The notes: generated by a model from the sequence alone, not told the origin. Counted from the first letter of the stretch, positions 1 through 61,370 are shown. The stretch: DNA of 64,000 nt from an uncultured bacterium (GCA_964621645.1 CAZUMH010000002.1:8928-72927), one strand, 5' to 3'. Program-made: numbers and translations.

Positions 1-96
1 CTGCCGGTCTCTCCTTTTTCCTATCCTGACGAATTAAAAATTAGCGGCAGGCAAAATGAAAAAGATAATTTTAAAAGCCGCTTTCTGGAGCAGGCG

Positions 97-732
97 GTGG
101 CTGTCTCATTGGCGCTCGAGAGTGACGATTCCCGGAATCTGCTCCCCAAACAGTTCATGAAAGAACTCAAAAGATCCCGACTTCAAAATATTATCCGGTA
201 CGCGGCGGCCGCGGTTGTGGCACTCATAGCGTTGGCATCCTTCCAGCTGAACAGCACTTTAAAGGAGAAGAAGGCTGAAGTGAGCACTGTCGAAAAACGG
301 GGTTCCTTATTTTCCCAAAATGCCGGATTACTATTTACGGCACTGGAAGGCCAGGAGAGAGAACTTAAAACTGAGCTGGTGGCGCTGAAGTCACGGGGAA
401 GTCAGGACCTGACTCCAATTTATATCCTGCGAATGCTCTCCAATATAACGCCCAGCATTTTTTCTTTGGTTTCATTTTCTTATGGTGAAGCCAAGGCCGA
501 GACAAAAAAACCGGAAGGCACTGAATCAGCAGAACCTCCCGGTAAACAGGTGATCATTAGCGGGATTGTTCAGAAGCCGCCCACGGATGTCGAGGTGGTC
601 CTGGCACAATATATTATTGATCTGGAAGAATCGGGATTTTTCTCTTCTGTTAACCTGGATAAAAAGATGCATCTGGAAGAAGAAAATGCCTTCCGTTTTA
701 GTCTGATCGCTCAGGTCCGCAAGGGAGGTTGA
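97..732 (+). CDS. pilN: Type IV pilus assembly protein PilN. Starts at GTG 97 with SD GGAG at 87-90. The frame is also open back to the window edge, so a longer or fused N-terminus cannot be excluded.
   Basis: N-terminal NLLP motif (SRNLLPKQF), a single TM helix (AAAVVALIALASF) then a coiled-coil region; position immediately upstream of pilO/pilP/pilQ. Confidence 0.65.
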   Translation: MAVSLALESDDSRNLLPKQFMKELKRSRLQNIIRYAAAAVVALIALASFQLNSTLKEKKAEVSTVEKRGSLFSQNAGLLFTALEGQERELKTELVALKSRGSQDLTPIYILRMLSNITPSIFSLVSFSYGEAKAETKKPEGTESAEPPGKQVIISGIVQKPPTDVEVVLAQYIIDLEESGFFSSVNLDKKMHLEEENAFRFSLIAQVRKGG

Positions 733-1307
733 GTGTGAAAGATAAGAAACAACTAATTGTTCCCGTACTTGCCGGCCTGGTCGTCGTTGCGTGGATTTTT
801 CTATTTTATCTTCCCTACTCCCAGCAGATCGGAAGCTATAATAATAGGTTGAAGGAATTAGAGAAAAGGGAGGCTGATAGAATATCTCCCATGGATATCA
901 CAATCCAGCAGAACAAGGTTGACAGTCTTAAGGTCAAACTGGACAATACCCTGAAGGCATTTTATCCGGAGGACAAACTGCTGGACCTGGGGAGAACAAT
1001 GGGAAAAGTCGGCAGGGATTACGGCCTCACCCTCGTGTCGATTGTCCCCGATCACAGCAGTCTTTCTATACTTTTTTCTAATCAGCAGATTTCGGAATTA
1101 CCGGTGACTGTCATTTACAGCGGGAGATTCATGAGATTGGCCAGCTTTCTCGATAAAATTGCACATATCGGTGTTTCATTCAAATTGACGGAATTGAAAC
1201 TGGAAAGACCGAGTTTTGATTCACGCGATCTGCAGATAGAATTAAATGGAGTAATCCTGATAAACACCAGGATATCACAATCGGCAGAAAATAAAAACAA
1301 AGCATAG
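729..1307 (+). CDS. pilO: Type IV pilus assembly protein PilO
   Basis: 4-nt overlap with pilN; N-terminal TM helix (LIVPVLAGLVVVAWIFLFYL) followed by a coiled coil; synteny pilN-pilO...pilP-pilQ. Confidence 0.6.
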   Translation: MSVKDKKQLIVPVLAGLVVVAWIFLFYLPYSQQIGSYNNRLKELEKREADRISPMDITIQQNKVDSLKVKLDNTLKAFYPEDKLLDLGRTMGKVGRDYGLTLVSIVPDHSSLSILFSNQQISELPVTVIYSGRFMRLASFLDKIAHIGVSFKLTELKLERPSFDSRDLQIELNGVILINTRISQSAENKNKA

Positions 1308-1358
1308 GATTACGACCTGGTGCTTTCCGGACAGCAGGAAGGAAGACCGGAGGAACAT

Positions 1359-4300
1359 ATGAATCGAATAAAAAGGGATAAGGGACTCATCCAATTCGGC
1401 GCGGCAATGCTGCTGCTGGGACTTTTATGGCTTACCTGTGCTCCCAAGCAACCGATGGATCCCACGGAATCCATCCAGGCACAGGTGACTATCCTGGCTG
1501 ATATGACTGCCGCCCCTTCCCAGGTTGTTATGGGTGGGAACCAGTCCACGGTACGAGTGAGGCTTATTGACGAACAAGGCGATCCCTTAGCCGGTGAAAC
1601 AATTTCTTTTTCCTGTTCTCTGGGAAGCATAACCCAGTCAGATGAAACCGACAGTGATGGGTGGGCCCAGGTTGTATTCACCAGTGGAACCGAGACCGGC
1701 GAAGCGACGGTTACGGCCCGCTACGGTAGTCAGGTCTCAACGGTGACAACAATCAAGATTCTTTCTTATGAGGCAGGAATGCTTCAGATAGAAACCGCGC
1801 GCAGCAGTATTCTGGCCAATGGGATTGACTCCACTGCCGTCCTTGTTACAGTACTGGGAGATTCAGCCCTGCCGGTACAGGGAGCCTTGGTTTCTTTTAG
1901 CACTTCCGCAGGTTCGATAGCATCTACGGCCATGACAAACAGCGAGGGGGTGGCTGAGGCCTATCTCTACAGTGATGCCTCCAAGAGTGATATGGCCGCC
2001 CTGGTAACGGCAGTGTATGATTCTCTAAGCAGTCAGATTTCGGTTAGCTTCAGGGGAGTGAGCATTACGGCAAGCGCCTTTTCCTCAGAGATATTGGCAG
2101 ATGGACAGAGTACTTCGACTATTTCAGTGATTTTAAAGGAGAGTACGAGCAAGGTAGCCATTTCCGGCGCGCGGGTAATATTCGCTACGAATGCCGGCAC
2201 TATACCCCGAAGTGCTCTCTCCAACAGCTCCGGAGTAGCTCAGGCAGATTTAACGAGCTCCAATGCGGCCGATTCTGCCGAGGTGATTATCCGGTACGGT
2301 TCCACCCTGTCCGATACGGTGACGGTCGTATTTGTGGAACAGACAGGTGTGACATACACCTTGAGCAGCTTGATGAGAAGTGCTCCGGTACTCCTGGCGA
2401 ACGGAGTTGATCAGTCAATTATTAGTACGCGGGTAACGGATGTTTCAGGTAATCCCGTATCCGGGATAACGGTTAATTTCACGGCCTCTGCGGGGGAGAT
2501 TGCTTCCAGTGTCGTCACCAGCAGCGACGGGCGGGCTCAGGCTACCCTTATTGCGGCGGCGAGCAGTACCGATATCATCTCTACAGTGACCGCTTCACTG
2601 GGAACTCAAAGTGTGCAGACCCAGGTTTCCCTTGCCGGTGTGAGCATGCTGCTTCTGGCTCAGCCTGATACTATCCTGGCTGACGGCCAAAGCGCCTCTT
2701 CTGTCATGCTCATTTTAAAACGGACTACTTCAAACGAAGCCGTTGCGAACGAGACGATACGGTTTTCGGCGACATTGGGGACTATACCATATCAGATTTC
2801 AACAGATGCCGCCGGAGTGGCCCGCGCCACGCTTACCAGTGTGACCAGCACGGGCACTTCCCGGATCATTGCTCGCTACGGACAGGAACTCTCAGATACC
2901 GCCCTGGTCGTCTTTTCCAATCAGGCACCTACTCAATATGTCTTGCAGAGCCTGACAGCCGGCAAGACGGAGATTATTGCCAATGGTGTTTCTCAGGCTG
3001 TTATCACTGCCAAGATCACGGATAATGATGGCAATCCTGTTTCGGGTGTCCCGGTGGTATTCCTGACCACTTCCGGAAGTATCGAGTCGCAGGCAATCAG
3101 TAACACTGACGGCACGGCCACGGCCCATCTGACATCACTGGCCAGCAGCAGCGATGTCACGGCAACGGTCACGGCGAGACTGGACCAAAGCTCCAGCAGA
3201 AACATCAATATTATCTTTCAGGGATTGACTCTCACCCTGAGTGCGATGCCCGACAGCATTTTGGCAGATGGGCAAAGTACCAGCTCCATCATGGCGGTGT
3301 TAAAGCGTACCGCTACCCAGGTTGCCGTCAACGGTGAGACGATTAATTTCGGCACGGATCTGGGTACCATTCCCGCTGAGGCACAAACAAATATTTCCGG
3401 GGTGGCTCAGGTTGATCTTACCAGCAGCACCCAGATAGGCCAGGCTCAGGTTGTAGCCCGCTATGGAAATCTTATTACCGATACCGTATACGTGGCTATG
3501 CAGGAATCAGTCCCCTACTATCTGCAAGTGACTGCATCACCGCCGGTGATTACGGCAGATGGTCAGAGTCAGTCAACTATCAGTGCTTCGGTGAGTGATA
3601 TCAACCGTAATCCCGTTCCGGACGGTACGATGGTATACTACCGGCTCTTTGGATCAGGAACCTTGCAGCGAAACGCCCAGGGCACCTCCAGCGGAGTTTC
3701 CAGCAATTATCTCACTGCGGGAGCCACGCCGGATACGGCTCAGGTTGAGGTCCGAGTGGGCTCGCTGCGCGATACAGTGGAAATAGTATACAAGGTTGGA
3801 CCAGCCGATCAGATCCTGGTTTCCACCAACAAGGACAGCATCATGGCCGACGGTAAGGAGACGGCCATCATTACGGCCAGGGTTCTGGATGCGCAGGGCA
3901 CTCCCATCCGGAACGCCACGGTGAATTTTGCCTCAAGTCTGGGGGATGTAACTCCCACGGCTCAAACCGGGACAGACGGCAGGGCTACGGCCCAATTCTC
4001 CAGCGGTGAGGTAGGAACGGCTACCGTTACCGCATCGGTAAATCTGGCCGGAGGTGGGACAGCCAGCGGAAATACAACCATTGTTCTGGTTCCGGGCGGG
4101 CCGAATTCCATCCTGCTGCACTTCGATCCCCAGACTATCGGAGTCAGGGGAACCGGCCAGAATCAGACGGCGATCATCGAAGCTGAAGTGCGGGACGCCA
4201 AGAACAATCCTGTCGAGGACGGCACCAATGTGACTTTCTCAATCGTGCATGGGCCCGGCGGCGGGGAATTCCTCACCCCCGGCCCCGCGGATATGCCTAT

Positions 4301-5363
4301 ACCCACCGTCGGGGGAATGGCTCGTGTGTCCATCTCCAGCGGCACAATTTCAGGCAACGTGCGGGTGCAGGCGCAGACCACCGGCAGCCAGGGAAACATC
4401 ATCGCCACAGCTTCCGAAATACTGATCCACGCCGGCCCTCCCTTCATGCTCGATCGGACCGACTACTCCTCAACTCATCTAACGGTGGCCGCGGAACAGC
4501 TGAATATATGGCGAACACTGGGTACGACAAATATGCATCTGGCGGTATTTGACAAATATCACAATCCGGTTCAACAGGGAACGGCAGTCTACCTGACCAG
4601 CTCTGGAGGAGGCGTGAGCACTCATACCGCCCTGACCGACGCCGACGGCAAGGCGACGGTAATCCTTACCGCAGGGAATAATCAGCCGAAGATCTCCGAT
4701 TACTATAATGGAGAACTGATGCAGGATCCCAATTTTCCAAACACAATATTGCCGGGCCCCATTGCTTACAGCGCTCCGGGATCTCCAACTGGTATGGAAT
4801 ACCTCCTTCCGGATTTTGAAAATTCTCTGGTGGCCAACTCCATGGCTGACAGTTTCGCCACCTGTCCCCGTTACCAGGGGAATCCTGTGGTGATGGAATA
4901 TGATTCATTAGAGAACGACGGGATTGCCCGCATAGTAGCGTACACCGAAGGCCAGGATCAGAACGGCGATTCCGTCCGTGTCTGGGATCAGATTACAGTG
5001 GTCTTTTCCGGAGCCGTCGGGTACAATGACGACTCTCAAACATCGCTGGCCTGGGACAGTCTGGGTCCGGGGGAATCCGCCACAATGATTTTCAGCCTCA
5101 TGGATGACAACGGCAATCCCATCGAAGCGCGATCGGATATCACCGCTTCCTTGACCAGCGAAGTGGACGCGGCTCTCTCCTGGACTGCTTTAAATACCGG
5201 CGACGGCTGGGGAACGGTATACTATGCCCTGACGATTTTCAACAAGGTGGATCCGACCAGTCCCAATCCGAAACTGGGGCCGACAACCATAAAAATATCC
5301 TGGACAGGAGATCATCAGTTCGGCGAGGCTATTTCAAAAGTCGGAGTCATTATAACTTCCTAG
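1359..5363 (+). CDS. Giant (about 1335 aa) secreted/lipoprotein-like surface protein. It has about 12-13 tandem bacterial Ig-like (Big_1/invasin-type) repeats and a unique C-terminal domain of about 300 aa.
   Basis: RBS GGAGGA then ATG 1359. Signal peptide MNRIKRDKGLIQFGAAMLLLGLLWLTC. Repeated about 95-aa units of the type 'ILADGQSTS...AGTIP...SNSSGVAQADLTSS...ARYG..LSDTV'. Confidence 0.7.
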   Translation: MNRIKRDKGLIQFGAAMLLLGLLWLTCAPKQPMDPTESIQAQVTILADMTAAPSQVVMGGNQSTVRVRLIDEQGDPLAGETISFSCSLGSITQSDETDSDGWAQVVFTSGTETGEATVTARYGSQVSTVTTIKILSYEAGMLQIETARSSILANGIDSTAVLVTVLGDSALPVQGALVSFSTSAGSIASTAMTNSEGVAEAYLYSDASKSDMAALVTAVYDSLSSQISVSFRGVSITASAFSSEILADGQSTSTISVILKESTSKVAISGARVIFATNAGTIPRSALSNSSGVAQADLTSSNAADSAEVIIRYGSTLSDTVTVVFVEQTGVTYTLSSLMRSAPVLLANGVDQSIISTRVTDVSGNPVSGITVNFTASAGEIASSVVTSSDGRAQATLIAAASSTDIISTVTASLGTQSVQTQVSLAGVSMLLLAQPDTILADGQSASSVMLILKRTTSNEAVANETIRFSATLGTIPYQISTDAAGVARATLTSVTSTGTSRIIARYGQELSDTALVVFSNQAPTQYVLQSLTAGKTEIIANGVSQAVITAKITDNDGNPVSGVPVVFLTTSGSIESQAISNTDGTATAHLTSLASSSDVTATVTARLDQSSSRNINIIFQGLTLTLSAMPDSILADGQSTSSIMAVLKRTATQVAVNGETINFGTDLGTIPAEAQTNISGVAQVDLTSSTQIGQAQVVARYGNLITDTVYVAMQESVPYYLQVTASPPVITADGQSQSTISASVSDINRNPVPDGTMVYYRLFGSGTLQRNAQGTSSGVSSNYLTAGATPDTAQVEVRVGSLRDTVEIVYKVGPADQILVSTNKDSIMADGKETAIITARVLDAQGTPIRNATVNFASSLGDVTPTAQTGTDGRATAQFSSGEVGTATVTASVNLAGGGTASGNTTIVLVPGGPNSILLHFDPQTIGVRGTGQNQTAIIEAEVRDAKNNPVEDGTNVTFSIVHGPGGGEFLTPGPADMPIPTVGGMARVSISSGTISGNVRVQAQTTGSQGNIIATASEILIHAGPPFMLDRTDYSSTHLTVAAEQLNIWRTLGTTNMHLAVFDKYHNPVQQGTAVYLTSSGGGVSTHTALTDADGKATVILTAGNNQPKISDYYNGELMQDPNFPNTILPGPIAYSAPGSPTGMEYLLPDFENSLVANSMADSFATCPRYQGNPVVMEYDSLENDGIARIVAYTEGQDQNGDSVRVWDQITVVFSGAVGYNDDSQTSLAWDSLGPGESATMIFSLMDDNGNPIEARSDITASLTSEVDAALSWTALNTGDGWGTVYYALTIFNKVDPTSPNPKLGPTTIKISWTGDHQFGEAISKVGVIITS
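1780..4455 (+). repeat. Diverged tandem coding repeats, about 285 nt (95 aa) per unit, encoding the Ig-like domains of the giant protein
   Basis: Recurrent peptide blocks (ILADGQS.S.I...L..., ...AGTIP..., RYG..L.DT..V.F) spaced at about 95 aa throughout residues about 150-1040. Confidence 0.5.
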
Positions 5364-5399
5364 AAAGTCGAAAGAGGATGTGTTATAAAGGAAACGGTA

Positions 5400-6188
5400 A
5401 TGATGCTAAAAAACAAGATGATATTGATAATCATGCTTTGCGGGGCTGTCGCCGGAACGGGATGGGCTCAGATGGCGGGTAATCCCACCGGGACCACCGG
5501 AGCTCGGCAGTGGACGATTAACGCGAACGGCACCTATTTTTATCAGGGAGTCGGCAGCGAGAAGGTGGTGTCAAACCGCTTCCTTTTAAAGAGCAATTGG
5601 GGAGTCACCGACTGGCTGGATCTCTACATTCAGGGTGGAGTCGCCAACCTCGAATCCCGTGTCAACTCCCTCAATACCACGGATTATCGGGACAAATACC
5701 GCTTCGCCTATGGAGGTGGATTCAGCACCTCCTATGGCCCCGGAAAACTCAAAGCATGGGCCAGTGCCAATGTCCTGCGTTTTCGTTCGCAAGGGAATTT
5801 CATCGAGACGCTTCTCATTGGAAGTCAGACCTACGATAAACGTTTTGAGATGGGCTATGACTGGCGTGAATTCCGGGCATTTTTAGGGAGCTCATACTCC
5901 TACCGACGGTTTACTTTCTACCTGGCCGCAGCAGGCTGGTACCTCTGGCGGCTGGATACGAAGGATGAATATCTTGAATCCGGCAGCTCAAGTACCTATA
6001 TGGGGCAGGTTAAGGATACATACAGAAGCGGCCTCTGGAGCGGTTTATTAGCGGGTATCCAGATGAATTTACCCCAGCATTATGCCATCAACATTGAAGT
6101 GCTGCTCTTTAATGAAACAAATGTGCAAATCATGGCAGGGATATCACAAACCGGATCCCCGCCGGAGAAACATATAACAGAATTATAG
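5400..6188 (+). CDS. Putative outer-membrane beta-barrel protein with a signal peptide, of unknown function
   Basis: Signal peptide MMLKNKMILIIMLCGAVAGTGWAQ; alternating aromatic/hydrophilic pattern (YRFAYGGGFSTSY, FRAFLGSSYSYRRFTFYLAAAGWYLW) typical of OM beta-strands. Confidence 0.4.
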   Translation: MMLKNKMILIIMLCGAVAGTGWAQMAGNPTGTTGARQWTINANGTYFYQGVGSEKVVSNRFLLKSNWGVTDWLDLYIQGGVANLESRVNSLNTTDYRDKYRFAYGGGFSTSYGPGKLKAWASANVLRFRSQGNFIETLLIGSQTYDKRFEMGYDWREFRAFLGSSYSYRRFTFYLAAAGWYLWRLDTKDEYLESGSSSTYMGQVKDTYRSGLWSGLLAGIQMNLPQHYAINIEVLLFNETNVQIMAGISQTGSPPEKHITEL

Positions 6189-6194
6189 TAAAGG

Positions 6195-6692
6195 GTGCTG
6201 GATATGGCACTGGCCAAGAAAGAAAAAAGACTATTGATAATCTGCGGAATCGTTGCCGTAGGGGCGGGGATTTATCAATTCGTCATTTATCCAGCCCAAC
6301 AGGCTAAAAAGAATCCCCTTGCGGAAAGCAAAGCGGCCGCTCAGGTTCAGCAAGCGGCGGCAGGCGTGACCGGTGAGATTACCCAAAAGGAACCGGTAAT
6401 GCCGACTCAGGCTACCATATTTGCTAATTGGGGCAGGGATCCGTTTGTGGCCGGCTCCCGTGCGGGAGAGTCAGCGTCTTCCAGCGGCGGTGGGTCATCT
6501 TCAGCTTCTAAAAAACTGGTGCTGAAGGGAATTTTCTGGAAGCAGGGCATACCACACGCTCTGATCAACGATTTCGTGTTGGCGGAGGGCGAAACTCAGG
6601 ATGGAATCCTGGTGAAAAAGATAACCGGGACGGAAGTGATTTGCCAGAGAAATAACAGGAAAATCACGCTACACTGGAGCGACAGATCATGA
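6195..6692 (+). CDS. pilP: PilP-like pilus assembly protein. Likely start is ATG 6204 after SD AAGGG; ORF-track start is GTG 6195.
   Basis: N-terminal membrane anchor (LLIICGIVAVGAGIY), Ser/Gly-rich linker, RDPF motif and C-terminal beta-domain (LKGIFWKQG...ALIND.VLAEGE); overlaps pilQ start by 4 nt. Confidence 0.5.
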   Translation: MLDMALAKKEKRLLIICGIVAVGAGIYQFVIYPAQQAKKNPLAESKAAAQVQQAAAGVTGEITQKEPVMPTQATIFANWGRDPFVAGSRAGESASSSGGGSSSASKKLVLKGIFWKQGIPHALINDFVLAEGETQDGILVKKITGTEVICQRNNRKITLHWSDRS

Positions 6693-8995
6693 ACAAGTAC
6701 AAAAAGACTTTGATAGGTATAGCGACCGCCTTTCTGCTTTGCAGCAGTACGGGATGGACGCAGTCCACACTCACTTCTATAAAGAAGGGGGGGGAGGGTG
6801 AACGAAGCTGGATTGTCCTTTCTTTCAATCAGAAGGCGATCTGGAGTGGCATCTCCCGATTGCAGGGGATGAAAGGATACGCCCTCTATTTCATGGGTAA
6901 CGCTGGTATTCTCGACGGGGAACGCCGCAGCATCAATCCGATCAACGGGCCCGATTTGCTGGTTGAGCAGGTAAGCACCGATCCGGAGGTGATGAAGGTT
7001 ACGGTGACCTGTGATGCTGCCACTCAGCTTACCGTTCTGAACAATAACCGGTACGTGGTGGTTTCCTTCAACGACGATCGATTCGTCCAATCGGCTGCAC
7101 TGCAGACCATTGAGGATGTCTCTCCTACACAGGGTGAACTGGTATCGGTTGTTCAGAGGAGCAGCAACAGCAATTTTATCGCATCTATGACGTTTAACGG
7201 ATCATATGAATGGTATGGCTTTATCCAACCGGTTTCCCACGCGGCGGCTTTGCTGATTCGTGGAGCTACCAACACAGGCCGCTCCGATATCAGTTATACA
7301 AATGCCGCTCTGCGCCGTATCCGCATCTTCAATGATGAGGGTGAACATCCCGGGCTTAAAGCAGTGCTTTTCTTTCAGGATGGAAATCCCTATACCATTG
7401 TCAAGAAGGGATCGCAGATGCTGGTGGAGACGGTGAGCCTGGGCGGTACGCCGCAGGAAAAAGTCCTACTGGCCAGCCGGGAACAATCCGGTGCGGTGAC
7501 TGTAACCCCTTCGGCGAAAATGAATGAGGAAGACTGGAAAAAGATCGATGACCTTCTTACCGGAGCACCGCCGGCAGCCAGTGCCGAGCCGGAAGCGGCA
7601 CCGCAGGAACAAAAACAGACAGAGCCCGCCATTAATCAGAGTGGTCAGGGAAAGCAGGTCGAGAAGGAGCAGCCCGCTGTCCAGGAAGAAGTAAATGAGA
7701 AACCAGTTCAGGAAAAACCCAAGGATTTTACTCCAGTAGAGGAGAAGACCAACAGAATTCCGTGGGACGAGAGAGTTACGTTCAGGTTTGATAATACAGA
7801 TTTAAATAAAGCGGTTCGAACAGTTGCAAATCTTTACAATTTGAATGTGGTTTTCTATGAGGGTCTGGAAGGAAAGGTAACCGTTGATTTACATGACGTT
7901 ACGCTGCGACAGGCTTTGGACAAGATGATCTATCCTCTCAATGCCGAGTATCTCGAAGATGACGGCATTATCATGGTCCGCCCGATGAACATGAGTTATG
8001 TTGGCGGGATGAAGACCCGGGTTTTCCGTCTGCAGTACGCCGAAGCGGAGAATGTGGCTCCCATTATCAAACAGGTAGTCAGCAATGACAGCCTTGTCCA
8101 GGTTTTTCATCCGGAATTCCTCAATGTTGAGAAAGGCGGTACCAAACGACAGGAATCGAACAAGATTACCATCCAGGGAGTGAGCCGTACCAGTGTTCTG
8201 GTGGTAACCGAGACTCCCGGCAAACTGAACGAAGTGGCGGATGTTATTAAAGAGCTGGATCGAGCTCCCGTCAAGGTGATCATCCATTCCAAACTGGTGG
8301 AGATGTCGCCCTTAAACAGCAACAAACTGGGGATCGACTGGGATAAAACCATCACCATGGCCTTGAATCAGGTGGATCAGCTGGCAGATGGAAGCAAAAT
8401 TGGCTATTCATTGCTTAATGATGCCCCAGGCAGCGGCGGGACAGTAGAGCTGGGCCACCTAACAGCCAGCAAATTTCAGGCAGTCCTTGATTTCCTGCAG
8501 GAGCGCTCCGACGTGAAACTGAAATCGAATCCCAGCCTGCTGACAAACGACAATGAAGAATCATCCATCAGTGTGGGCACCACGGTGCCGGTTCCGAAGA
8601 TCCAGAGAGGTTTCGGCGGCCAGGGAGACATGGTTACCTTTGATTATAAAGAGGTTAATATTCAGATGAATGTTACTCCTCACGTTACCGAAGATAATAA
8701 GATTACCATGTTCGTTAATCCGGTGATCGAAGAGATAACCGGGTGGGTGGAATTCCAGGGCAATCAGGCACCCATCACGGATAAGAGATCGGTAAACAGT
8801 ATCGTGACAATTAATAATGGAGAAACAGTGGTCATCGGCGGATTGGTAAAGAGTCAGCAGACACGCACCCTGAAAAAGGTCTGGTTCCTGGGCAGCCTTC
8901 CCCTGCTGGGAAAACTTTTCCAACACGAGGAGAACGAGGATAAACAGACAGATTTGATGATTTTTATCACTCCTGAAGTGGTACATGAGGGTTGA
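6689..8995 (+). CDS. pilQ: Type IV pilus secretin PilQ, with AMIN-like N-terminal domains and a Pro/Glu/Gln-rich linker
   Basis: Secretin N domain (NLNVVFYEGLEGKVTVDLHDVTLRQALDKMI) and canonical secretin C-domain (VVIGGLVKSQQTRTLKKVWFLGSLPLLGKLFQHE...DLMIFITPEVV); signal peptide. Confidence 0.85.
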   Translation: MNKYKKTLIGIATAFLLCSSTGWTQSTLTSIKKGGEGERSWIVLSFNQKAIWSGISRLQGMKGYALYFMGNAGILDGERRSINPINGPDLLVEQVSTDPEVMKVTVTCDAATQLTVLNNNRYVVVSFNDDRFVQSAALQTIEDVSPTQGELVSVVQRSSNSNFIASMTFNGSYEWYGFIQPVSHAAALLIRGATNTGRSDISYTNAALRRIRIFNDEGEHPGLKAVLFFQDGNPYTIVKKGSQMLVETVSLGGTPQEKVLLASREQSGAVTVTPSAKMNEEDWKKIDDLLTGAPPAASAEPEAAPQEQKQTEPAINQSGQGKQVEKEQPAVQEEVNEKPVQEKPKDFTPVEEKTNRIPWDERVTFRFDNTDLNKAVRTVANLYNLNVVFYEGLEGKVTVDLHDVTLRQALDKMIYPLNAEYLEDDGIIMVRPMNMSYVGGMKTRVFRLQYAEAENVAPIIKQVVSNDSLVQVFHPEFLNVEKGGTKRQESNKITIQGVSRTSVLVVTETPGKLNEVADVIKELDRAPVKVIIHSKLVEMSPLNSNKLGIDWDKTITMALNQVDQLADGSKIGYSLLNDAPGSGGTVELGHLTASKFQAVLDFLQERSDVKLKSNPSLLTNDNEESSISVGTTVPVPKIQRGFGGQGDMVTFDYKEVNIQMNVTPHVTEDNKITMFVNPVIEEITGWVEFQGNQAPITDKRSVNSIVTINNGETVVIGGLVKSQQTRTLKKVWFLGSLPLLGKLFQHEENEDKQTDLMIFITPEVVHEG

Positions 8996-8998
8996 TGC

Positions 8999-10066
8999 AT
9001 GATAGGTCTTGAACAGATTCATCAACTGCTGACCCACGCGCAAAAACTCTCTGCTTCGGATATCCATCTGGGAGCGGGTTATCCTCCGATTGTACGGATC
9101 GACGGAAAACTGCAGCCCATCAAGGGACGCGTTCTCAGCAAGGGTGATATGGAAGATATCATTGTCCAGGTGCTGGATGATTTCCAAATGGAACGGTTCC
9201 GCAAGGACATGGAACTGGATTTTGGCTACTCCGTGGAAAACGTGGCTCATTTCCGTGTCAACGTGTTCAATAAACTAGGCGGATACGGGATGGCTTTCCG
9301 TATAATCCCTGACAAGATACGCTCCCTGGAAGAACTGGGCCTGCCGGTCACCGTGGCGGAAATGTCCCGGCGGAATGAAGGACTGGTGCTGGTCACGGGG
9401 CCCACGGGACACGGTAAATCGACAACTCTGGCGGCGATGATCGACCTGATGAACACCGAACGCCGCTCCCATATCATTACCATCGAAGATCCTATCGAAT
9501 ACACGCATAAAGCGAAAAACTGTCTTATCCAGCAGCGTGAGCTGGGGCACCATACTCATTCTTTTTCGGCCGCTTTGCGCAGCGCCCTTCGGGAAGATCC
9601 CGATGTGGTGCTGGTGGGAGAGATGCGCGATCTGGAAACAATCGCCCTGGCTTTGACGGCAGCTGAAACCGGACATCTGGTTCTCTCAACCCTGCATACC
9701 AGAAACGCTCCTGATACGGTGAACCGTATCATTGACGTATTCCCGGCTGAACAGCAGAGTCAGATCCTGGCTCAGATCTCAAGCTCACTCCTGGGAATAA
9801 TTTCACAGCGGCTGATACCGAAGGCCCGGGGAGAGGGAAGGATAGCGGCGACGGAAGTCATGGTGGTTAATCCGGCAATCCGCAATCTTATCAGGGAGCG
9901 CAAGACGCACCAAATTCTTTCCATCATGCAATCCAGCACCTCCAAGGGGATGATGTCGATGGACGATCATCTGCTGGAACTGTTGAAAAAAGGATTAATT
10001 TCCAGAGAATTAGCCCAGAAATATGCTTTGGAGCTGGAACGTTTTGTGCCGAAGACCGGCCGCTGA
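8999..10066 (+). CDS. pilT: Twitching-motility retraction ATPase PilT
   Basis: Walker A GPTGHGKSTT, Asp/His boxes, C-terminal AIRNLIRE motif; 355 aa length fits PilT rather than PilB. Confidence 0.85.
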   Translation: MIGLEQIHQLLTHAQKLSASDIHLGAGYPPIVRIDGKLQPIKGRVLSKGDMEDIIVQVLDDFQMERFRKDMELDFGYSVENVAHFRVNVFNKLGGYGMAFRIIPDKIRSLEELGLPVTVAEMSRRNEGLVLVTGPTGHGKSTTLAAMIDLMNTERRSHIITIEDPIEYTHKAKNCLIQQRELGHHTHSFSAALRSALREDPDVVLVGEMRDLETIALALTAAETGHLVLSTLHTRNAPDTVNRIIDVFPAEQQSQILAQISSSLLGIISQRLIPKARGEGRIAATEVMVVNPAIRNLIRERKTHQILSIMQSSTSKGMMSMDDHLLELLKKGLISRELAQKYALELERFVPKTGR

Positions 10067-10100: not shown

Positions 10101-10126
10101 AGGCCTCCTTCCAGGAGGCCTTTTTG
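10101..10126 (+). terminator. Rho-independent terminator downstream of pilT
   Basis: Stem AGGCCTCC / GGAGGCCT (8 bp, perfect) with loop TTCCA, followed by TTTTT. Confidence 0.65.
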
Positions 10127-10220: not shown

Positions 10221-10264
10221 TTGACAAACAGATGTAATATTTGTATATTCAAAAGTTCGAATAT
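10221..10264 (+). promoter_or_regulatory. Consensus sigma70 promoter (TTGACA-17-TATATT), overlapped by a 9-2-9 inverted repeat (ATATTCAAA-AG-TTCGAATAT) that is a candidate ArsR-family operator
   Basis: TTGACA at 10221-10226, 17-nt spacer, TATATT at 10244-10249; inverted repeat at 10245-10264; 30-45 nt upstream of the trxB start. Confidence 0.5.
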
Positions 10265-13870: not shown

Positions 13871-13981
13871 GAATAACACGGCAGAGCAAAATTGCATGAT
13901 TTTTCGGGAAATAGATTACCTTTTGTAATCATTCTATTCATTTTGAAAGTGGATCAAAATGGTGATAGAGGAGGAACAGAA

Positions 13982-14359
13982 GTGGCTTCAAAAATCCTAA
14001 TCGTTGATGACGATGCGGGGATCCGCCTTCTTTTATCCAAATTTCTCCAGCGGCAGGGATTCGAGATCATTACTGCTGAGGATGGATTGGAAGGGGTGGA
14101 GATGGCCAAGGAGCATCACCCTGATTTGGTGCTGCTGGATGTTGTCATGCCACGCATGAATGGACTGACAGCGGCGCGTCTGATCAAATTCTACAAGCCG
14201 CTTAGTGATGTACCCATCATTTTTCTCACCGCAAAAGACGCCCAGAAAGAGATCGATTTAGCTGAGGCGGCCCGGGCGGATGTTTACATCACTAAACCAT
14301 TTGATGTGCGGCAGGTTGTGGAAGTGGTCACCGAAATGCTGATGCCCTCTCCAGTCTGA
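13982..14359 (+). CDS. CheY-like single-domain response regulator (GTG start, SD GGAGGA)
   Basis: Receiver motifs ILIVDDD, the phospho-acceptor Asp in LVLLDVVMP, conserved Thr/Lys later in the domain; 126 aa from the GTG. Confidence 0.8.
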   Translation: MASKILIVDDDAGIRLLLSKFLQRQGFEIITAEDGLEGVEMAKEHHPDLVLLDVVMPRMNGLTAARLIKFYKPLSDVPIIFLTAKDAQKEIDLAEAARADVYITKPFDVRQVVEVVTEMLMPSPV

Positions 14360-14449
14360 ACCGACATTCAACAGGAGCGGTCCGGCCTGATGTCGTCCGC
14401 TTCGCTGAAAAGGCGATTCCGATTTCCAGCCTGAATTGGAGGACGGTGC

Positions 14450-14938
14450 ATGTCCGATAGAGAGAAAGTACTTCTTTTTTATGTCCAGAAACAGTGTTTT
14501 GCATTGCGGCTGCCTTTGGTCGAGCGCATTACCATGTCGGCCCAGATAACACCGCTGCCTCAGGCCCCGAAGATTGTCCTGGGAGTCATCGATGTGCAGG
14601 GGGATATTTTCCCTGTAATCGATACCAGAAAAAGATTCAGTATGAAAACCAAGAATGTGGGGATGAACGATTATTTTATCATCGGTAAAACGGGTAATCG
14701 AAAGGTTGCCCTCCTGGTCGATAATATAGGAGAGATTGAGACGGTGACCAGTGACGATATCATCGATGGCGAGGATATCCTGCCTAAGACTGGTCCTGTG
14801 GAAGGAGCCTTAAAATTGCGCGGAGATATTATTTTCATTCACGATCTGGAAAAGTGCCTGTCACTGAATGAGGAACGGCAGCTCAGCCGAGCCTTGAAAA
14901 AATCGAATCTCACAACCGGAACGAAAGAACAAAAATGA
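14450..14938 (+). CDS. cheW: CheW-like coupling protein
   Basis: Single CheW domain (GVIDVQGDIFPVIDTRKRF...VALLVDNIGEI). Confidence 0.8.
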   Translation: MSDREKVLLFYVQKQCFALRLPLVERITMSAQITPLPQAPKIVLGVIDVQGDIFPVIDTRKRFSMKTKNVGMNDYFIIGKTGNRKVALLVDNIGEIETVTSDDIIDGEDILPKTGPVEGALKLRGDIIFIHDLEKCLSLNEERQLSRALKKSNLTTGTKEQK

Positions 14939-16431
14939 GTAACCACGTTCATAGCACCGTTATCGATCAGCTTAGTGAGCACTTAAGTAAACATATGGGC
15001 CTTTACTTCCAGAAAGAACGACGTCTGGACTTGCTGCGGGGGATTCGGGAGGCGTCGGAAGTATTCGGCTTTCAGGATGTTGAGACATTTATTCACTGGA
15101 TCATGTCCACCGAGTTGAATCAGCGTCAAGTAGAAGTTTTGGCCCGTTTCCTGACCGTCGGCGAAACCTATTTTATGAGGGAGAAGAGAGTTTTTGAGGC
15201 TTTGGATAGTCAAATCATCCCTGATCTCTTGCGGGAACGCAGGATGAAAGAAAGCTCTATTAACATCTGGAGCGCCGGATGCTGTACCGGTGAGGAGCCT
15301 TACTCGGTGGCGATCATGCTTGATCAGCTCATCCCGGATATTCAGGCGTGGAACATCTCAATCCTCGGGACGGATATCAATCCCTTATTTCTGCAGAAAG
15401 CGAATCGCGGCATTTATACTGAATGGTCCTTCAGGGGGACACCGGCCAGCATCAGGGAGAGATATTTCAAGAAGGTCGGGAGCCGGGAATTCATGATCAT
15501 TGATCGAATAAAACAGATGATCCACTTTTCCTATCTTAATTTGGCCAAAGATCCGTTCCGTACCAGCGGCATCGGCCCGGAACCGATGGATATCATCTTC
15601 TGCCGCAATGTTCTCATGTATTTCAAACCGGATCGCGTTGAAGAGATCGTCAATAAATTCTATGACGTCCTCAATGAGGACGGCTGGCTTATCGTGGGCC
15701 CCAGTGAATCGGCTCATATATATTTCTCGAAATATGAGAGCGTGGAGTTCCCGGGAGCGATTCTCTTCCGCAAGAGCCTTAAACCGAAGAATAAACCCGA
15801 GAAAATTATCAGGCGCCAGAAGAAAAAGGCCATCTACCATACTCTGCCCACAGTCAAGAAAAAGGTTGCCAGGCCCGCGCTGAAGCCCGCTCTCCGTGCT
15901 GAACCGGAGAAAACCAAATCAGAAAAGAAACAGGTTTTCAGTCAGGCATTGCAATATTACCGTGAGAAAAAATATCAAGCTGTTGCGGAGGCGGTGGAAC
16001 AATTCCTCACCATAAGCACCAATCCGGATATAAGAATGATGCTGCTTCTGTCCAAGGCGTATGCCAACCTGGGGCGCCTGGAACAGGCGATGAACTGGTG
16101 CACCAAAGCCATTAACCATGACAAACTGAATCCTCGCTGCTATCATCTGCAAGGGTCTCTTTTCCAGGAACAGGACCGACTGGAAGAGGCCGCGCAATCG
16201 TATCAGAGAGTCCTCTATCTAAATCCCGATTATCCCATGGCTCATTTCATGCTGGGGAATGTATGCAGGCAGCAGGGGAAGGTACGTGAATCCAATAAAT
16301 ATTTCAGCAATGTACTCTCGCTTTTAAACGCTCAGGATAAAGACTCCCTGTTACCGGATGCGGAAGGCATTACGGTAGGAGGGATGCTTGAATGCATTAA
16401 ATCGATGATGAATGGAGAATATCAGGGATGA
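14935..16431 (+). CDS. cheR: CheR-type MCP methyltransferase fused to C-terminal TPR repeats
   Basis: CheR N-terminal helical domain, SAM-binding core (IWSAGCCTGEEPYSVAIML, ILGTDIN), then TPR repeats of about 130 aa. Confidence 0.85.
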   Translation: MSNHVHSTVIDQLSEHLSKHMGLYFQKERRLDLLRGIREASEVFGFQDVETFIHWIMSTELNQRQVEVLARFLTVGETYFMREKRVFEALDSQIIPDLLRERRMKESSINIWSAGCCTGEEPYSVAIMLDQLIPDIQAWNISILGTDINPLFLQKANRGIYTEWSFRGTPASIRERYFKKVGSREFMIIDRIKQMIHFSYLNLAKDPFRTSGIGPEPMDIIFCRNVLMYFKPDRVEEIVNKFYDVLNEDGWLIVGPSESAHIYFSKYESVEFPGAILFRKSLKPKNKPEKIIRRQKKKAIYHTLPTVKKKVARPALKPALRAEPEKTKSEKKQVFSQALQYYREKKYQAVAEAVEQFLTISTNPDIRMMLLLSKAYANLGRLEQAMNWCTKAINHDKLNPRCYHLQGSLFQEQDRLEEAAQSYQRVLYLNPDYPMAHFMLGNVCRQQGKVRESNKYFSNVLSLLNAQDKDSLLPDAEGITVGGMLECIKSMMNGEYQG

Positions 16432-17021
16432 AGGGAAAAGAGAGCAAGACGAAGAAAAAAGACAGCGGTCTGCTCGAAAATTTGCGGGACACCCTTGCCG
16501 TAAATCAGGAAGATGAAGAAAAGCTGCTGGAGCAGCGGGCCAAGGAGCTGGCCGAAGTTCGCAAAGACGAGGATATCGATGAAGATTCTTTAAGTGTGAT
16601 CCAATTTGACCTCGCTTATGAACGCTACGGTATTGAATCGTGCTGGGTACGGGAAGTCTATCCCCTAAAGGAACTCACTCCGGTACCTTGCACTCCAGAT
16701 TTCATTCTCGGTATAACCAGCATCCGCGGACAGATCATATCAATTATGGATCTGAAGCGTTTTTTCGATCTTCCCACCAAAGGTCTGACGGATCTTAATC
16801 GGGTCCTGGTATTGAGAAATGATGAGATGATTTTCGGCATTCTGGCCGATTCAATCTACGGAGTGAGGAGTGTGCGGGAGGATGACCTGTTGGATCGTCC
16901 GGCAGCCGGTGGAAAGATCAGCAATGATTATATAATGGGTGTCACGGAAGATCAGCTGATTGTGCTGGACGGCAGAAAGATATTAAGCGATCAGAAGATT
17001 TTAATCTATGACGAGGGATAA
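16428..17021 (+). CDS. Second CheW-like coupling protein
   Basis: CheW domain (ILGITSIRGQIISIMDLKRFF...VLVLRNDEMIFGILADSI). Confidence 0.75.
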   Translation: MKGKESKTKKKDSGLLENLRDTLAVNQEDEEKLLEQRAKELAEVRKDEDIDEDSLSVIQFDLAYERYGIESCWVREVYPLKELTPVPCTPDFILGITSIRGQIISIMDLKRFFDLPTKGLTDLNRVLVLRNDEMIFGILADSIYGVRSVREDDLLDRPAAGGKISNDYIMGVTEDQLIVLDGRKILSDQKILIYDEG

Positions 17022-17040
17022 ATTGTACAGGGAGAGTACA

Positions 17041-18639
17041 ATGAGCAAGTTTTTCACCATGAAGCTGAAAATTATCATCCTGCCTGCTTTGGCGTCTATT
17101 CTGCTCTTGACCGTGCTGTGCGTCGAATGCGTCTATATGAAGAAGAGCCGGAATCTGTCCGAAAAGGCGATATCCACTCATCTTCCAGCCTGGGAGACGG
17201 GAATCAATATGCGCAACACCCTGGTGAGTTTTCATCATAGTATTGGACAGGCCGTGCTTGACGGGAAACAGAGTGACCTGACGAACGTCCAGACCCAGCT
17301 GGACCACTTTCTGGCTCTGATTGACGATGCCCAAAAAAGGTCACTGATCCCGGCTGAAGAACTCGATCCCATCAGGAAAAACTTCAATAATTATTACAAA
17401 TTATATCAGGATGCCGGATTGGGCCAGCCTGGAAAACATATTTCTGTCCAGGCAAGCATGGCAGAATCATCCTACAACGCAACGTATGATGCCATTGAAA
17501 CTGCTATTACTCAAAGCAACGCCACTCTTTCCTCTGGTCTTACACATCTTGACCAAACCTCGGATTCCATGGGTGACGCGCTGACATGGCTCATAATCAT
17601 CGCTATTGTTATCTTATTCGGCTTTACATACAATATCGTCCAGTCTGTCACAAGGCCAATTAAAAAACTGGCAAAAATCACCTCCCGAATCGCCGAAGGT
17701 GATCTATTGGTGGAAGTGGAACGGTCGGATGGCAGGGATGAATTGGCGGAATTAATCAACGGCTTCAATATCATGGTAGAGAATCTGCATGTTTTAACCC
17801 AGGAAGTCAAGGATGGTACCCAAGGGCTTGCCGCAGCGGCGGGACAGATCTCCGCTTCGGTCACCGAGATTTCTTCCGCTGCCGCCGAGACGGCTTCAGC
17901 GGCGAGTCAGACGAGCACTACGGTTGAGGAAGTGAGGCAGACGGCTCTTGATTCCAACCGCAAGGCGAAGATGGTCTCGGAAAACGCTCATGAGGCTGTG
18001 GAGATATCTCAAACCGGCGAGGATGCGGTTAACCTGAGCATAGAAGGAATGCACCGGATTGAGGAACAGATGGAATCCATTGCCGGCAGCATTATGAAAC
18101 TCAGTGAACATGGACAAGCCATCGGGGACATCATAGCCACTGTGGAAGACATTGCCGAGCAATCACGTCTCCTGGCGGTCAACGCATCCATTGAAGCGGT
18201 GAAGGCCGGGGAACACGGAAAGGGCTTCTCGGTGGTGGCTCAGGAAGTACAAAATCTGGCGGAACAGTCAAAAGAATCCACGGCACGGGTGCGGTCCATT
18301 CTGGACGACATCCAGAAAGCGACCAGTGAAGCTGTTATGAAAACGGAACAGGGGTCAAAGGCGGTTAAGGCCGGAGTAAAGCAATCCCAGGAATCGGGGG
18401 AAGCCATCGCCAGACTGGCTGAGAGCGTGGAACAGGCGGCTCAGGCGACAACCCAGATTTCCGTATCCAGCCAGGAGCAGGTGGTGGGCATGGATCAGGT
18501 GGTTTCGGCCATGGAGAGCATTAAAACAGCCAGCGCCCAGCATGTGGATGCCACCAGGCAGGTGGAACTGGCCGCGCAGGAGCTGCATAAGCTCGGCCAG
18601 CGTTTGTCAGAATTGATGAACCGATATCAGTTAAATTAA
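17041..18639 (+). CDS. Methyl-accepting chemotaxis protein (TM - sensor - TM - HAMP - MA domain)
   Basis: Two TM helices, HAMP (PIKKLAKITSRIAEGDL...), and a methyl-accepting signalling domain with the conserved hairpin region (EQSRLLAVNASIEAVKAGEHGKGFSVVAQEV). Confidence 0.85.
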   Translation: MSKFFTMKLKIIILPALASILLLTVLCVECVYMKKSRNLSEKAISTHLPAWETGINMRNTLVSFHHSIGQAVLDGKQSDLTNVQTQLDHFLALIDDAQKRSLIPAEELDPIRKNFNNYYKLYQDAGLGQPGKHISVQASMAESSYNATYDAIETAITQSNATLSSGLTHLDQTSDSMGDALTWLIIIAIVILFGFTYNIVQSVTRPIKKLAKITSRIAEGDLLVEVERSDGRDELAELINGFNIMVENLHVLTQEVKDGTQGLAAAAGQISASVTEISSAAAETASAASQTSTTVEEVRQTALDSNRKAKMVSENAHEAVEISQTGEDAVNLSIEGMHRIEEQMESIAGSIMKLSEHGQAIGDIIATVEDIAEQSRLLAVNASIEAVKAGEHGKGFSVVAQEVQNLAEQSKESTARVRSILDDIQKATSEAVMKTEQGSKAVKAGVKQSQESGEAIARLAESVEQAAQATTQISVSSQEQVVGMDQVVSAMESIKTASAQHVDATRQVELAAQELHKLGQRLSELMNRYQLN

Positions 18640-18653
18640 GGTGGGAGTGGATA

Positions 18654-19070
18654 ATGAATATTCAGGATCCCGAATTTTTTAAGGAACTGGTGGCCATGTT
18701 CAAGATAGAAACCACTGAACATGTTGAGGCCATTCAGGATGGGTTGGATAAGCTGAAGGGAGATCTGTCCGGATCGGAAAATCAGGATGTACTGGAAGTC
18801 GTTTTCAGAGCCGCCCACAGCTTGAAAGGAGCCGCCCGCACGGTAGGACTGATCGATATAGAATCCATCGGCCAGGAACTGGAACGATTGCTTGCACAGG
18901 TGAAAAACGGAAAACTGGAGCTGGATCAGCGCAAGGTGGTGCTTTTCAAGGAAGTAACCAGTGAATTGCAGGTGATGATACAGTCACTTACCGACGATGG
19001 CAAGATAACGGGTGATTCATCTCAACTTCTGCGCAGGCTGGAACTGGTGGAGCAGGAGAAGGCTCAGTAA
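18654..19070 (+). CDS. Stand-alone Hpt (CheA-P1-like histidine phosphotransfer) protein, paralogous to the CheA N-terminus
   Basis: FRAAHSLKGAARTVGL matches the CheA P1 His motif; about 45% identical in register to residues 1-130 of the downstream CheA. Confidence 0.7.
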   Translation: MNIQDPEFFKELVAMFKIETTEHVEAIQDGLDKLKGDLSGSENQDVLEVVFRAAHSLKGAARTVGLIDIESIGQELERLLAQVKNGKLELDQRKVVLFKEVTSELQVMIQSLTDDGKITGDSSQLLRRLELVEQEKAQ

Positions 19071-19106
19071 TCCGGTACCCTGGCAAAATGAGGACGGAGC
19101 TTTTTC

Positions 19107-21461: not shown

Positions 21462-21480
21462 TGGGAGATCGGGCTCTCGC

Positions 21481-22560
21481 ATGATCAAAGTACTTATTAC
21501 AGATGATTCACCGGTTGTCAGGGGATACTTAAAATACATCCTTAGTTCCGATAAAGATATACAGGTCATCGGAGAAGCCAGGAATGGCAAGGAGGCGGTG
21601 GAACGGGTACAGGAAGAAAAACCGGATGTAGTCACCATGGATATCCATATGCCGCAGATGGATGGATTTGAGGCTACTCGCAGGATCATGGAAACCAATC
21701 CCGTCCCCATTGTCATCTGCAGTGCCAGCTGGAATCCGGAAGAAGTCGACAAGACGTTCCGGACCATGGAGGCGGGCGCCGTGGCGGCTCTGGAGAAACC
21801 ACGGGGCATGGGACATCCCGATTCCGATTCTTCCGTAAAGACGCTCCTGCGCACTGTAAAAGCAATGGCCGATGTCAAGGTGGTGCGGCGCTGGTCCAAG
21901 AAGAAACGTGAACAGCATCCACCCAGGCCGGTGTCACCGTCGCCTCAACCGGCTCGGCAGGTGAGCCGGACAGTCGTACCCGCGGTATTGCCGTCTAAAG
22001 GGATTCAGGTCGTCGCAATCGGGGCTTCCACCGGGGGACCCATGGCCCTGCAAACGATCCTTTCCGGACTGCCAGCGGATTTCAAGGTTCCGGTGCTCAT
22101 TGTGCAGCATATCGCTCCCGGGTTTCTGGCCGGTCTGGGCAGCTGGCTCACGACCAGCACCGGATATCAGGTGGTAGTGCCTGAGGATGGAGAAGCCATG
22201 ATTCCGGGTACGGCCTATCTCGCTCCCGATGATTTCCAGCTGGGTGTACGCGGAGAGCATAAGATTCTTCTGCGCCAGGATCCTCCGGAAAACAATCTCC
22301 GGCCGGCTGTTTCGTATCTGTTCCGCAGCGTGGCCGAAAAATATGGAAAAAACTCATTAGGCGTTCTGCTTACCGGGATGGGTAAAGACGGCGCCGCTGA
22401 GCTTAAGCAGATAGCCGATGCCGGAGGCATAACCATTGCCCAGGACAAAGCTACTTCCATTGTGCACGGCATGCCCGGAGAGGCAATTCGTCTGGGTGCA
22501 GCGACCCATGTCGAGTCAATTCAGAATATTTCGGAAAAGTTGAAAACATTAGTTAATTGA
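21481..22560 (+). CDS. cheB: CheB protein-glutamate methylesterase (REC + CheB catalytic domain)
   Basis: N-terminal receiver (VLITDDS...[10 protein letters not shown]), then the methylesterase core (GASTGGP...[10 protein letters not shown]...GMGKDGA). Confidence 0.9.
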
Positions 22561-22570
22561 GGATACGGAA

Positions 22571-28001: not shown

Positions 28002-28126
28002 CATTTTTGCGGCCGCCAATATGTAAATAAAAATATTTGCATTTTGTTGAAATAGAGATTATCTTTTTATTTATTTAAGGGAAACTCCAGGGATAAAACA
28101 CAGTATACTGATTGAGGAGGTGTCCC

Positions 28127-29368: not shown

Positions 29369-29544
29369 AAGCGGCTGATTCCAGGTAATCCAATCCCCTC
29401 TATGGATGTCAGATGGTAATCATCACGGATCCGGAATTTTTACTGATATTCCCGGAGCCGTTTCAGAGTGGTGAATTACTAATACATGTAATACTGGAAC
29501 CACATTAACCGAATCAGGCATTAAAACTCGACGGAGTAAGGTGC

Positions 29545-32793: not shown

Positions 32794-32803
32794 ACGGAAG
32801 CAG

Positions 32804-61369: not shown

Positions 61370-61370
61370 T

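Follow-up and report, generated by a model that had tools for sequence, protein, structure and literature searches.

Type IVa pilus (T4aP) clusters are among the best-studied envelope machines, and to our knowledge their pilMNOPQ unit is regarded as contiguous. With respect to adhesins, the PilY1 gene is usually positioned at the distal end of the minor-pilin cluster. In the inverse autotransporters (type Ve; intimin, invasin and YeeJ) the passenger carries a chain of a variable number of Big_1/Invasin_D3 domains, and the barrel is an N-terminal 12-stranded domain (PF11924) of the same protein. In SprB-SprF and other pairs of a protein whose C-terminal domain (CTD) is of type B with a PorP protein, a giant repeat adhesin is anchored by a small barrel encoded adjacent to it (PMC9143113). 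The window analyzed here is a stretch of 64,000 nucleotides from an uncultured bacterium (GCA_964621645.1 CAZUMH010000002.1:8928-72927), and it carries a pilus operon in which two genes, one for a giant immunoglobulin (Ig)-repeat protein, BIG, and one for a small protein, p262, are inserted. The window matches the canonical pilMNOPQ operons of Pseudomonas, Myxococcus and Neisseria in order and functions, with pilM, pilN, pilO, a PilP-like connector, a secretin and, nearby, pilT. It differs from them in a pilM-pilN fusion, in a connector with a transmembrane helix instead of a lipobox, and in the 4.8-kb BIG and p262 insert between pilO and the connector gene.

An earlier note on this DNA had placed a giant Ig-repeat gene inside the pil assembly operon, which was confirmed by the open reading frame (ORF), by Pfam and by the run of same-strand genes: at positions 1-10066 of the window all genes lie on the + strand and are separated by -4 to 51 nt. 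The gene had been said to sit between pilO and pilP. It does lie between them, but the next gene encodes the barrel protein p262, a partner that had been overlooked, and the PilP-like gene p165 comes after it. No promoter or terminator that was convincing or above chance was found flanking BIG, the sole strong terminator being at 10101-10121, after pilT; from this layout, co-transcription of BIG with the pil genes is plausible.

Related loci were obtained from a scan of one genome per species (26 loci), a metagenome scan with an alignment of the BIG C-terminus (8 loci) and protein look-ups (2 loci). About 34 of these 36 loci were non-redundant, as L035 equals L026 and L030 appears to equal L005. 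Candidate division KSB1 or Candidatus Latescibacterota were among their labels. At every one of the 36 loci (~34 non-redundant) a p262 homolog was present directly downstream of BIG, usually with a gap of 5-20 nt or an overlap. In the sources, BIG homologs were named "hypothetical protein" or "Ig-like domain-containing protein" and p262 homologs were nameless, and the literature searches turned up no published account of the p262 family or of a pilMNOPQ unit that contains an Ig-repeat gene. The T4aP cluster with BIG-p262 is a genuine variant, conserved and apparently undescribed, and is assembled from familiar parts (Big_1 domains and a small barrel).

Three arrangements of the pair with pilus genes were observed. 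In arrangement (a) the order is pilC, pilins, a DUF4900-like gene, pilMN, pilO, BIG, p262, p165, pilQ and pilT. It was seen in the window and at 13 non-redundant loci with at least one pil flank (L001-L010, L014, L029 and L031), which bears out the conservation in orthologous pil operons that the earlier note had proposed to check. Eleven of these 13 show both the pilO and the p165-pilQ-pilT flanks, two (L001 and L031) the downstream flank only, and the arrangement is kept down to ~42% identity in the C-terminal module of BIG. L012 holds pilO-BIG-p262 only, its contig ending after p262. In orthologs farther removed, BIG stands beside other pilus genes, namely minor pilins or the secretin. Arrangement (b), found at nine loci, runs pilR, pilC, pilA, minor pilins, a DUF4900-like gene, BIG and p262, usually followed by an M23 peptidase gene, pyrR and pyrB. 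At many of these loci a gene for a beta-helix or propeller protein sorted by the T9SS (type IX secretion system) stands between the DUF4900-like gene and BIG, from which it follows that these lineages possess a T9SS. Such T9SS-tailed inserts, of beta-helix/NosD or beta-propeller type, are located at L017:6459-8129, L033:953-2602 and L021:4076-5833 (-). In arrangement (c), represented by L036, an AMIN-domain ORF and a secretin ORF are followed by BIG and p262. The BIG ortholog of this locus (L036:3-10819) has 25 Ig domains in 2783 aa and is encoded 12 nt downstream of the secretin. Two ORFs were called for the latter, one giving a 428-aa AMIN-domain protein and the other a 382-aa secretin domain, which may reflect a frameshift or a genuinely split pilQ.

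Linkage to pil genes in all orthologs, on which the earlier note had made its proposal depend, did not hold. In L024 and L025 the BIG-p262 pair has no pil genes within 8-10 kb upstream, where flagellin/fliD/comM-like or aminoacyl-tRNA synthetase genes were found instead, and the module can thus exist apart. Loci other than those of arrangements (a), (b) and (c), L012, L024 and L025 were too short to judge context. On the gene orders, BIG-p262 is an evolutionary unit that moves as a pair, strongly but not absolutely tied to pilus genes, and the three independent arrangements suggest that it is functionally coupled to pili. Two irregular loci were also seen. At L034:886-2475 a 327-aa ORF directly past a pilin gene consists of the C-terminal module of BIG alone, without a signal peptide, and at L002:712-4223 BIG is split into three ORFs; both are probably assembly errors, frameshifts or pseudogenes.

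BIG (1359..5363, + strand) is a lipoprotein-like Ig-repeat protein. Its ORF is open from 1320 to 5363, and the ATG at 1359, which is preceded by GGAGG, is the likely start, giving a protein of 1334 aa where 1335 or 1347 aa had been stated before. The Big_1/Invasin_D3 Ig-like array covers aa 45-1019 (1491..4415, +) and consists of 10 domains in which A and B types alternate. Pfam matched Big_1 in 10 stretches (E=2e-101) and Invasin_D3 in 11 (E=4e-101), bearing out the domain type proposed earlier with 10 clear domains, and a hidden Markov model built from BIG's own repeats likewise placed 10 strong Ig-like domains within aa 45-1019 and a further, degenerate one at aa 1053-1114. Compared with one another, the domains are 22-49% identical in protein and ~47-59% in DNA, the latter near background. 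Domains 3, 5 and 7 are mutually alike (43-49%), as are 2, 4 and 6 (37-40%), which indicates that an old two-domain unit was duplicated. Tandem Repeats Finder detected no DNA tandem repeats in BIG; the divergence of the repeats at the DNA level noted earlier was therefore borne out and recent repeat slippage was rejected. Recent horizontal insertion was also rejected, because GC at third codon positions is 0.58 in BIG and 0.55-0.61 in neighbouring and distant host genes. The raised overall GC of BIG comes from the second codon position and reflects the abundance of Ser, Thr, Ala, Gly and Val in the protein. With an isoelectric point of 4.3 the mature protein is acidic; it has 51% Ser/Thr/Ala/Val/Gly and 1.6% Lys, and contains two Cys, at aa 86 and 1169.

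With respect to the N-terminus, alignment of 20 ortholog N-termini defined a signal peptide up to Cys27 (LLWLT, then C), a family-specific motif (C-x-x-x-x-P-[LIVM]-D-P-T) and a short linker before the first Ig domain (1359..1490, +), which begins 18 residues past Cys27. In almost every full-length ortholog the N-terminus is positively charged and is followed by a hydrophobic stretch and then a Cys, and a Cys ends the hydrophobic region in 22 of the 23 full-length orthologs examined, the exception being L025, whose N-terminus is not clearly readable. In most of them the Cys opens the motif C-[ST]-x-x-x-P-[LIVM]-D-P-T, and ~10 more residues precede Ig1. The lipobox consensus is [LVI][ASTVI][GAS]C, and the residue at -1 in BIG orthologs is T, A, F, V, M, Q or H. 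From these features BIG is likely to be lipidated on Cys27. Within ~600 kb of related loci the post-Cys motif was confined to BIG orthologs, and on account of this restriction the idea that it is a general lipoprotein sorting signal was rejected.

The array is followed by a conserved C-terminal module of ~315 aa (aa 1020-1334; 4416..5360, +), made up of a degenerate Big_1-like domain, a variable insert and a terminal beta-sandwich. This part had earlier been described as a unique domain, a description contradicted by a sub-threshold Big_1 match within it, by its beta-sandwich end and by its Foldseek matches to tandem Ig domains. The alignment of homologs shows that the variable insert has invariant residues, including an NDG-AR-A motif. 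An AlphaFold2 (AF2) model computed from 13 sequences reached an overall predicted local distance difference test score (pLDDT) of 55, with the last ~110 aa forming a beta-sandwich at pLDDT 80-94 and aa 1105-1220 below 50. The best Foldseek match of this model was intimin D00-D0, followed by other tandem Ig domains including those of SbsC, a weak result since only the last ~110 aa of the model are usable. No lectin, enzyme or T9SS sorting domain was detected in the module by Pfam, NCBIfam or Foldseek, aa 1105-1220 being poorly modelled. As far as can be seen, the module consists mostly of further degenerate Ig-like sandwiches with no distinct non-Ig fold. When the C-terminal 324 aa were used as query, only 14 homologs were obtained from 5.8 billion protein clusters, all of them metagenomic; protein searches gave similarly few for p262 (3-7), and the alignments are shallow for this reason.

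While both ends of BIG are retained, the number of Ig domains between them changes greatly. Orthologs have 5, 7, 8, 11, 14, 15 or 25 Ig domains and lengths of 723-2783 aa; the C-terminal module is present in every one, and the N-terminal motif is also kept despite the change in Ig number. When the orthologs that have 11 Ig domains were compared, the best-conserved parts were Ig8-Ig10 and aa 1020-1120, at 49-79% identity, and the least conserved were Ig2-Ig6, at 28-54%. Conserved ends combined with an approximately five-fold variation in length are the pattern of a surface-projecting adhesin, and argue against a machine part of fixed dimensions or a periplasmic spacer.

The partner gene p262 (5400..6188, +) encodes a protein with a signal peptide and an alternation of aromatic and hydrophobic residues, predicted to be an outer-membrane beta-barrel of ~10 long strands on the basis of its AF2 model and Foldseek. 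The model (predicted template modelling score 0.63, pLDDT 67) has 10 long antiparallel strands. Foldseek against the PDB returned outer-membrane barrels only, among them OmpT/Pla, FapF, OpcA and autotransporter translocators, with E values down to 6e-8 and a template modelling score of ~0.5; one match was a porin belonging to the Legionella Dot/Icm machine. A PDB sequence search with p262 gave no matches. An exhaustive HMMER search of 1.84 billion representatives yielded 101 clusters of the p262 family, nearly all of 240-280 aa, with a conserved AQxxGNP motif near the N-terminus and GISQTG near the C-terminus. Compared with Pfam, 15 of 65 family members weakly matched PF13505 OMP_b-brl (best E=6e-6) and three weakly matched Legionella_OMP. 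None of the 65 matched PorP_SprF (PF11751), and the inverse-autotransporter barrel PF11924 was absent from p262 and its 64 relatives at E<=0.1. We assign p262 as an outer-membrane beta-barrel with medium confidence, as the model allows.

Set against the inverse autotransporters, BIG shares the variable-number Big_1/Invasin_D3 chain of their passengers, its C-terminal model best matches intimin D00-D0, a similar-sized outer-membrane barrel is present and the distal end is conserved. In contrast to theirs, the barrel of BIG is a separate polypeptide encoded downstream. BIG matches neither PF11924 nor LysM, no C-type-lectin head is recognised in its partly poorly modelled C-terminal module, its N-terminus is lipoprotein-like, and p262 is modelled with 10 rather than 12 strands. 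The SprB-SprF pairs of Bacteroidota resemble BIG-p262 in that the gene for a giant repeat protein, in BIG a presumed adhesin, is immediately followed by a small barrel gene, in the association with a motility apparatus and in belonging to the same broad superphylum (PMC9143113), and relatives of the window organism also have T9SS-sorted proteins. However, BIG has a signal peptide ending in Cys, its machine is a type IVa pilus and not a gliding/T9SS motor, and p262 lies outside the PorP/SprF family, so that beyond the adjacency of a barrel gene only a generic outer-membrane barrel fold is common to both. Neither a type A (PF18962) nor a type B (PF13585/TIGR04131) CTD was found, whether in full-length BIG with Pfam and NCBIfam or in 13 C-terminal modules at E<=1. 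By sequence BIG-p262 is thus a member of neither group, and at most it would work like them. The PilY1/PilC adhesins are likewise large secreted proteins, and the position of BIG in arrangement (b), at the distal end of the minor-pilin cluster, recalls that of PilY1. BIG differs from them in lacking the PilY1 beta-propeller (PF05567) and a vWA domain in Pfam scans and in having a lipoprotein-like signal and a dedicated barrel partner, and in the window's clade it does not stand beside minor pilins.

The reading that we favor, with a probability of roughly 45%, is that BIG-p262 forms a surface stalk, anchored by lipid and partnered by a barrel, which is made along with the pilus and serves as a short-range adhesin. 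BIG would be exported by Sec, presumably lipidated on Cys27, and held at the outer membrane together with the ~10-stranded p262, a contact to which solely the strict gene pairing points. Its outer-membrane location and surface exposure are likewise predictions. The end of BIG that contacts p262 could be the N-terminal motif, by analogy with the intimin anchor, or the C-terminal sandwich, as in SprB-SprF. The Ig chain, whose number of domains differs by species, would push the most conserved region (Ig8 to about aa 1120, then the terminal sandwich) outward, and this distal region would bind a surface or a partner. Since neither a promoter nor a terminator is visible around the module in its place between pilO and pilP/pilQ, the pair would be made whenever the pilus machine is made, and it would complement long-range retractile pili as a short-range adhesin. 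Of the three roles offered by the earlier note, that of a pilus-associated adhesin fits best. Several points weigh against this reading. The lipobox is non-canonical at -1 in many orthologs, and the pair occurs away from pilus genes in L024 and L025, and a pilus-specific role is therefore not obligatory. No recognisable binding fold such as a lectin appears in the C-terminal module, as judged from a poor model. The p262 model is of medium confidence and would be a narrow 10-stranded barrel through which the threading of a polypeptide is not obvious. It is unusual for an adhesin to be encoded amid the genes of a machine operon, and all carriers are uncultured metagenome-assembled genomes.

A more far-reaching proposal, which we regard as doubtful, is that the pair represents an unrecognised class of pilus-coupled surface apparatus, which has become an integral, co-transcribed part of the T4aP in KSB1/Latescibacterota-related bacteria. 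In it a small outer-membrane barrel would receive its intimin-like Ig stalk in trans. Its anchor would be a "split" type-Ve-like or a SprB/SprF-like one, without sequence relation to either, and the apparatus could act as a short-range adhesin loaded by pilus retraction or as an extracellular guide at the secretin exit.

The rival explanations differ in how closely they tie the pair to the pilus machine. BIG and p262 might be structural accessories of its outer-membrane complex, forming a collar, guide or stabiliser at the secretin exit or a conduit through a capsule or S-layer. Such a role would suit a module that in the window and 13 loci is bordered by the alignment-complex genes and by pilP/pilQ and in L036 comes right after the secretin, with tight spacing and no internal promoter or terminator seen, and whose two products are both predicted in or at the outer membrane; the Foldseek match to the Legionella Dot/Icm porin and the three p262 relatives with weak Legionella_OMP matches agree with it. 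We nevertheless consider it unlikely, as the five-fold range in Ig number fits a fixed geometry poorly, L024 and L025 retain the pair with no pil genes adjacent, nine loci have it with pilins and no secretin nearby, and Pfam and NCBIfam scans gave no similarity to the secretin partners TsaP and pilotins. At the other extreme, an autonomous surface module with no pilus-specific function could merely reside in envelope and motility clusters and be co-expressed from them. All 24 non-redundant loci with enough flank, besides L024 and L025, adjoin pilus genes, and in three arrangements, which would not be expected from chance hitch-hiking; moreover, in the window's clade the pair splits an otherwise universally contiguous pilMNOPQ and is retained there to ~42% identity. 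These observations make an autonomous module improbable, even though L024 and L025 have the pair without pil neighbours, lineages differ in where it sits relative to pil genes, which shows that it moves as a unit, and neither sequence resembles a pilus component.

The two other roles proposed by the earlier note fared less well. BIG could be cargo that leaves through the secretin in a T2SS-like (type II secretion system) use of the pilus machinery, as with the lipoprotein pullulanase encoded beside its own secretion genes, given that it is encoded within the secretin's operon and bears a Sec-type, lipoprotein-like signal; T4P-like systems that export proteins exist. We judge this to be very unlikely. 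PilT, the minor pilins in orthologs and a Pil-Chp-like chemosensory cluster are typical of a retractile T4aP and weaken the proposal, a dedicated and always adjacent barrel partner would be superfluous, and at the loci of arrangement (b) no secretin is linked to the pair. Least probable of all is a periplasmic spacer spanning a thick periplasm from the inner-membrane platform to the secretin, for which orthologs ranging from 5 to 25 Ig domains are ill suited. Going by the size of an Ig domain, this range implies lengths of ~20 nm to ~100 nm. The location of the gene between pilO and pilP, the extended Ig chain and weak Pfam macroglobulin (MG) matches recalling the periplasmic lipoprotein alpha-2-macroglobulin are in its favor; set against these are the absence of a thioester motif and an A2M domain from BIG, a partner that is predicted to be an outer-membrane rather than a periplasmic protein, and the PilP-like connector p165 already in place. 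An identity of BIG as alpha-2-macroglobulin was itself rejected, the MG3/MG4 matches being weak and at or below cutoff and no CxEQ thioester, A2M or TED domain being present.

A conserved two-gene insertion inside pilMNOPQ, with the same pair near pilins or a secretin elsewhere, points to an unstudied accessory function of pili in uncultured bacteria of sediment and hydrothermal habitats, which form a large group. If a barrel-anchored Ig stalk is indeed formed, it would be a third independent means by which diderms display Ig-repeat adhesins, after the inverse autotransporters and the T9SS type-B cargo/PorP pairs. Should the pair prove no more than a common kind of surface protein accompanying pilus genes, the value of the finding would be modest and mainly annotational; interest would be higher if a new mode of adhesin anchoring or a true component of the pilus machine were proven. 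The small p262 family would be a compact and tractable target for structural and heterologous-expression work.

The surrounding operon holds the components by which T4aP machinery is recognised, namely PilM/N/O, a secretin and a PilT-family ATPase. It enters the window within a fused pilM-pilN gene, of which the 3' part (1..732, +; PilM end, transmembrane helix and PilN-like periplasmic domain) has its frame open from base 1 and runs off the window start. In the window's clade pilM and pilN are one fused gene. The pilMN orthologs are ~575 aa long, and that at L003:4636-6366 matches TIGR01175 pilM (95 bits, below cutoff) and the PilM-like Amuc_1101_fam of Akkermansia. Overlapping the pilMN stop by 4 nt, pilO (729..1307, +) matches PF04350 PilO at 23 bits against a cutoff of 22, and its L002 counterpart is annotated PilO. 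Beyond BIG and p262, p165 (6204..6692, +), the stop of which overlaps the start of pilQ, encodes a putative bitopic inner-membrane protein. It begins with an N-terminal transmembrane helix, followed by a low-complexity linker and, at the C-terminal end, a conserved beta domain of ~60 aa. In Pfam the sole match was a weak one to T2SSM (23 bits, below its cutoff), and searching the PDB with a p165 profile gave no matches; by position and architecture only, p165 is taken to be the PilP/GspC-type connector.

The pilQ-type secretin (6689..8995, +) matches PF00263 Secretin at 153 bits and Secretin_N at 50 bits, and TIGR02515 PilQ aligned over positions 2-427 of 428 (212 bits, below cutoff). Its N-terminal ~360 aa (6689-7780, before N0/STN) have no Pfam AMIN match, in contrast to the L036 relative, and contain a long linker in which Glu, Lys, Pro and Gln abound. 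The retraction ATPase gene pilT (8999..10066, +) scored 474.7 bits with TIGR01420 pilT_fam against a cutoff of 319.1. The operon ends at an intrinsic-terminator-like hairpin (10101..10121, +) with a 9-bp stem, 6 GC pairs and a T-run, and a promoter-like site for trxB follows at 10221-10249 (11/12 match). With PilT above its curated cutoff and a Pil-Chp-like cluster nearby, the surrounding system is a retractile, motility-type T4aP rather than a dedicated T2SS.

Among the neighbouring features, a conserved protein of ~310-470 aa is encoded past the minor pilins in both arrangements (a) and (b), as at L003:2976-3902, L017:4667-6085 and L021:6701-7648. Pfam recognised DUF4900 in the L017 protein and nothing in the other two, and the protein is possibly a large minor pilin of the PilX or GspK kind. 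The Pil-Chp/Frz-like chemosensory cluster lies ~4 kb downstream of the operon, at positions 13892-27536 of the window, with genes for a response regulator, CheW, CheR-TPR, a further CheW, a methyl-accepting chemotaxis protein, a hybrid CheA, CheB and a 1302-aa multi-receiver hybrid kinase. The rest of the window, as at positions 28112-35893 and 56473-62456, has the content of an ordinary diderm chromosome, including genes for resistance-nodulation-division efflux (two AcrB-type pumps with an HlyD-type adaptor) and for ClpB, and the beginning of a cluster for division and the cell wall (FtsI, MurE).

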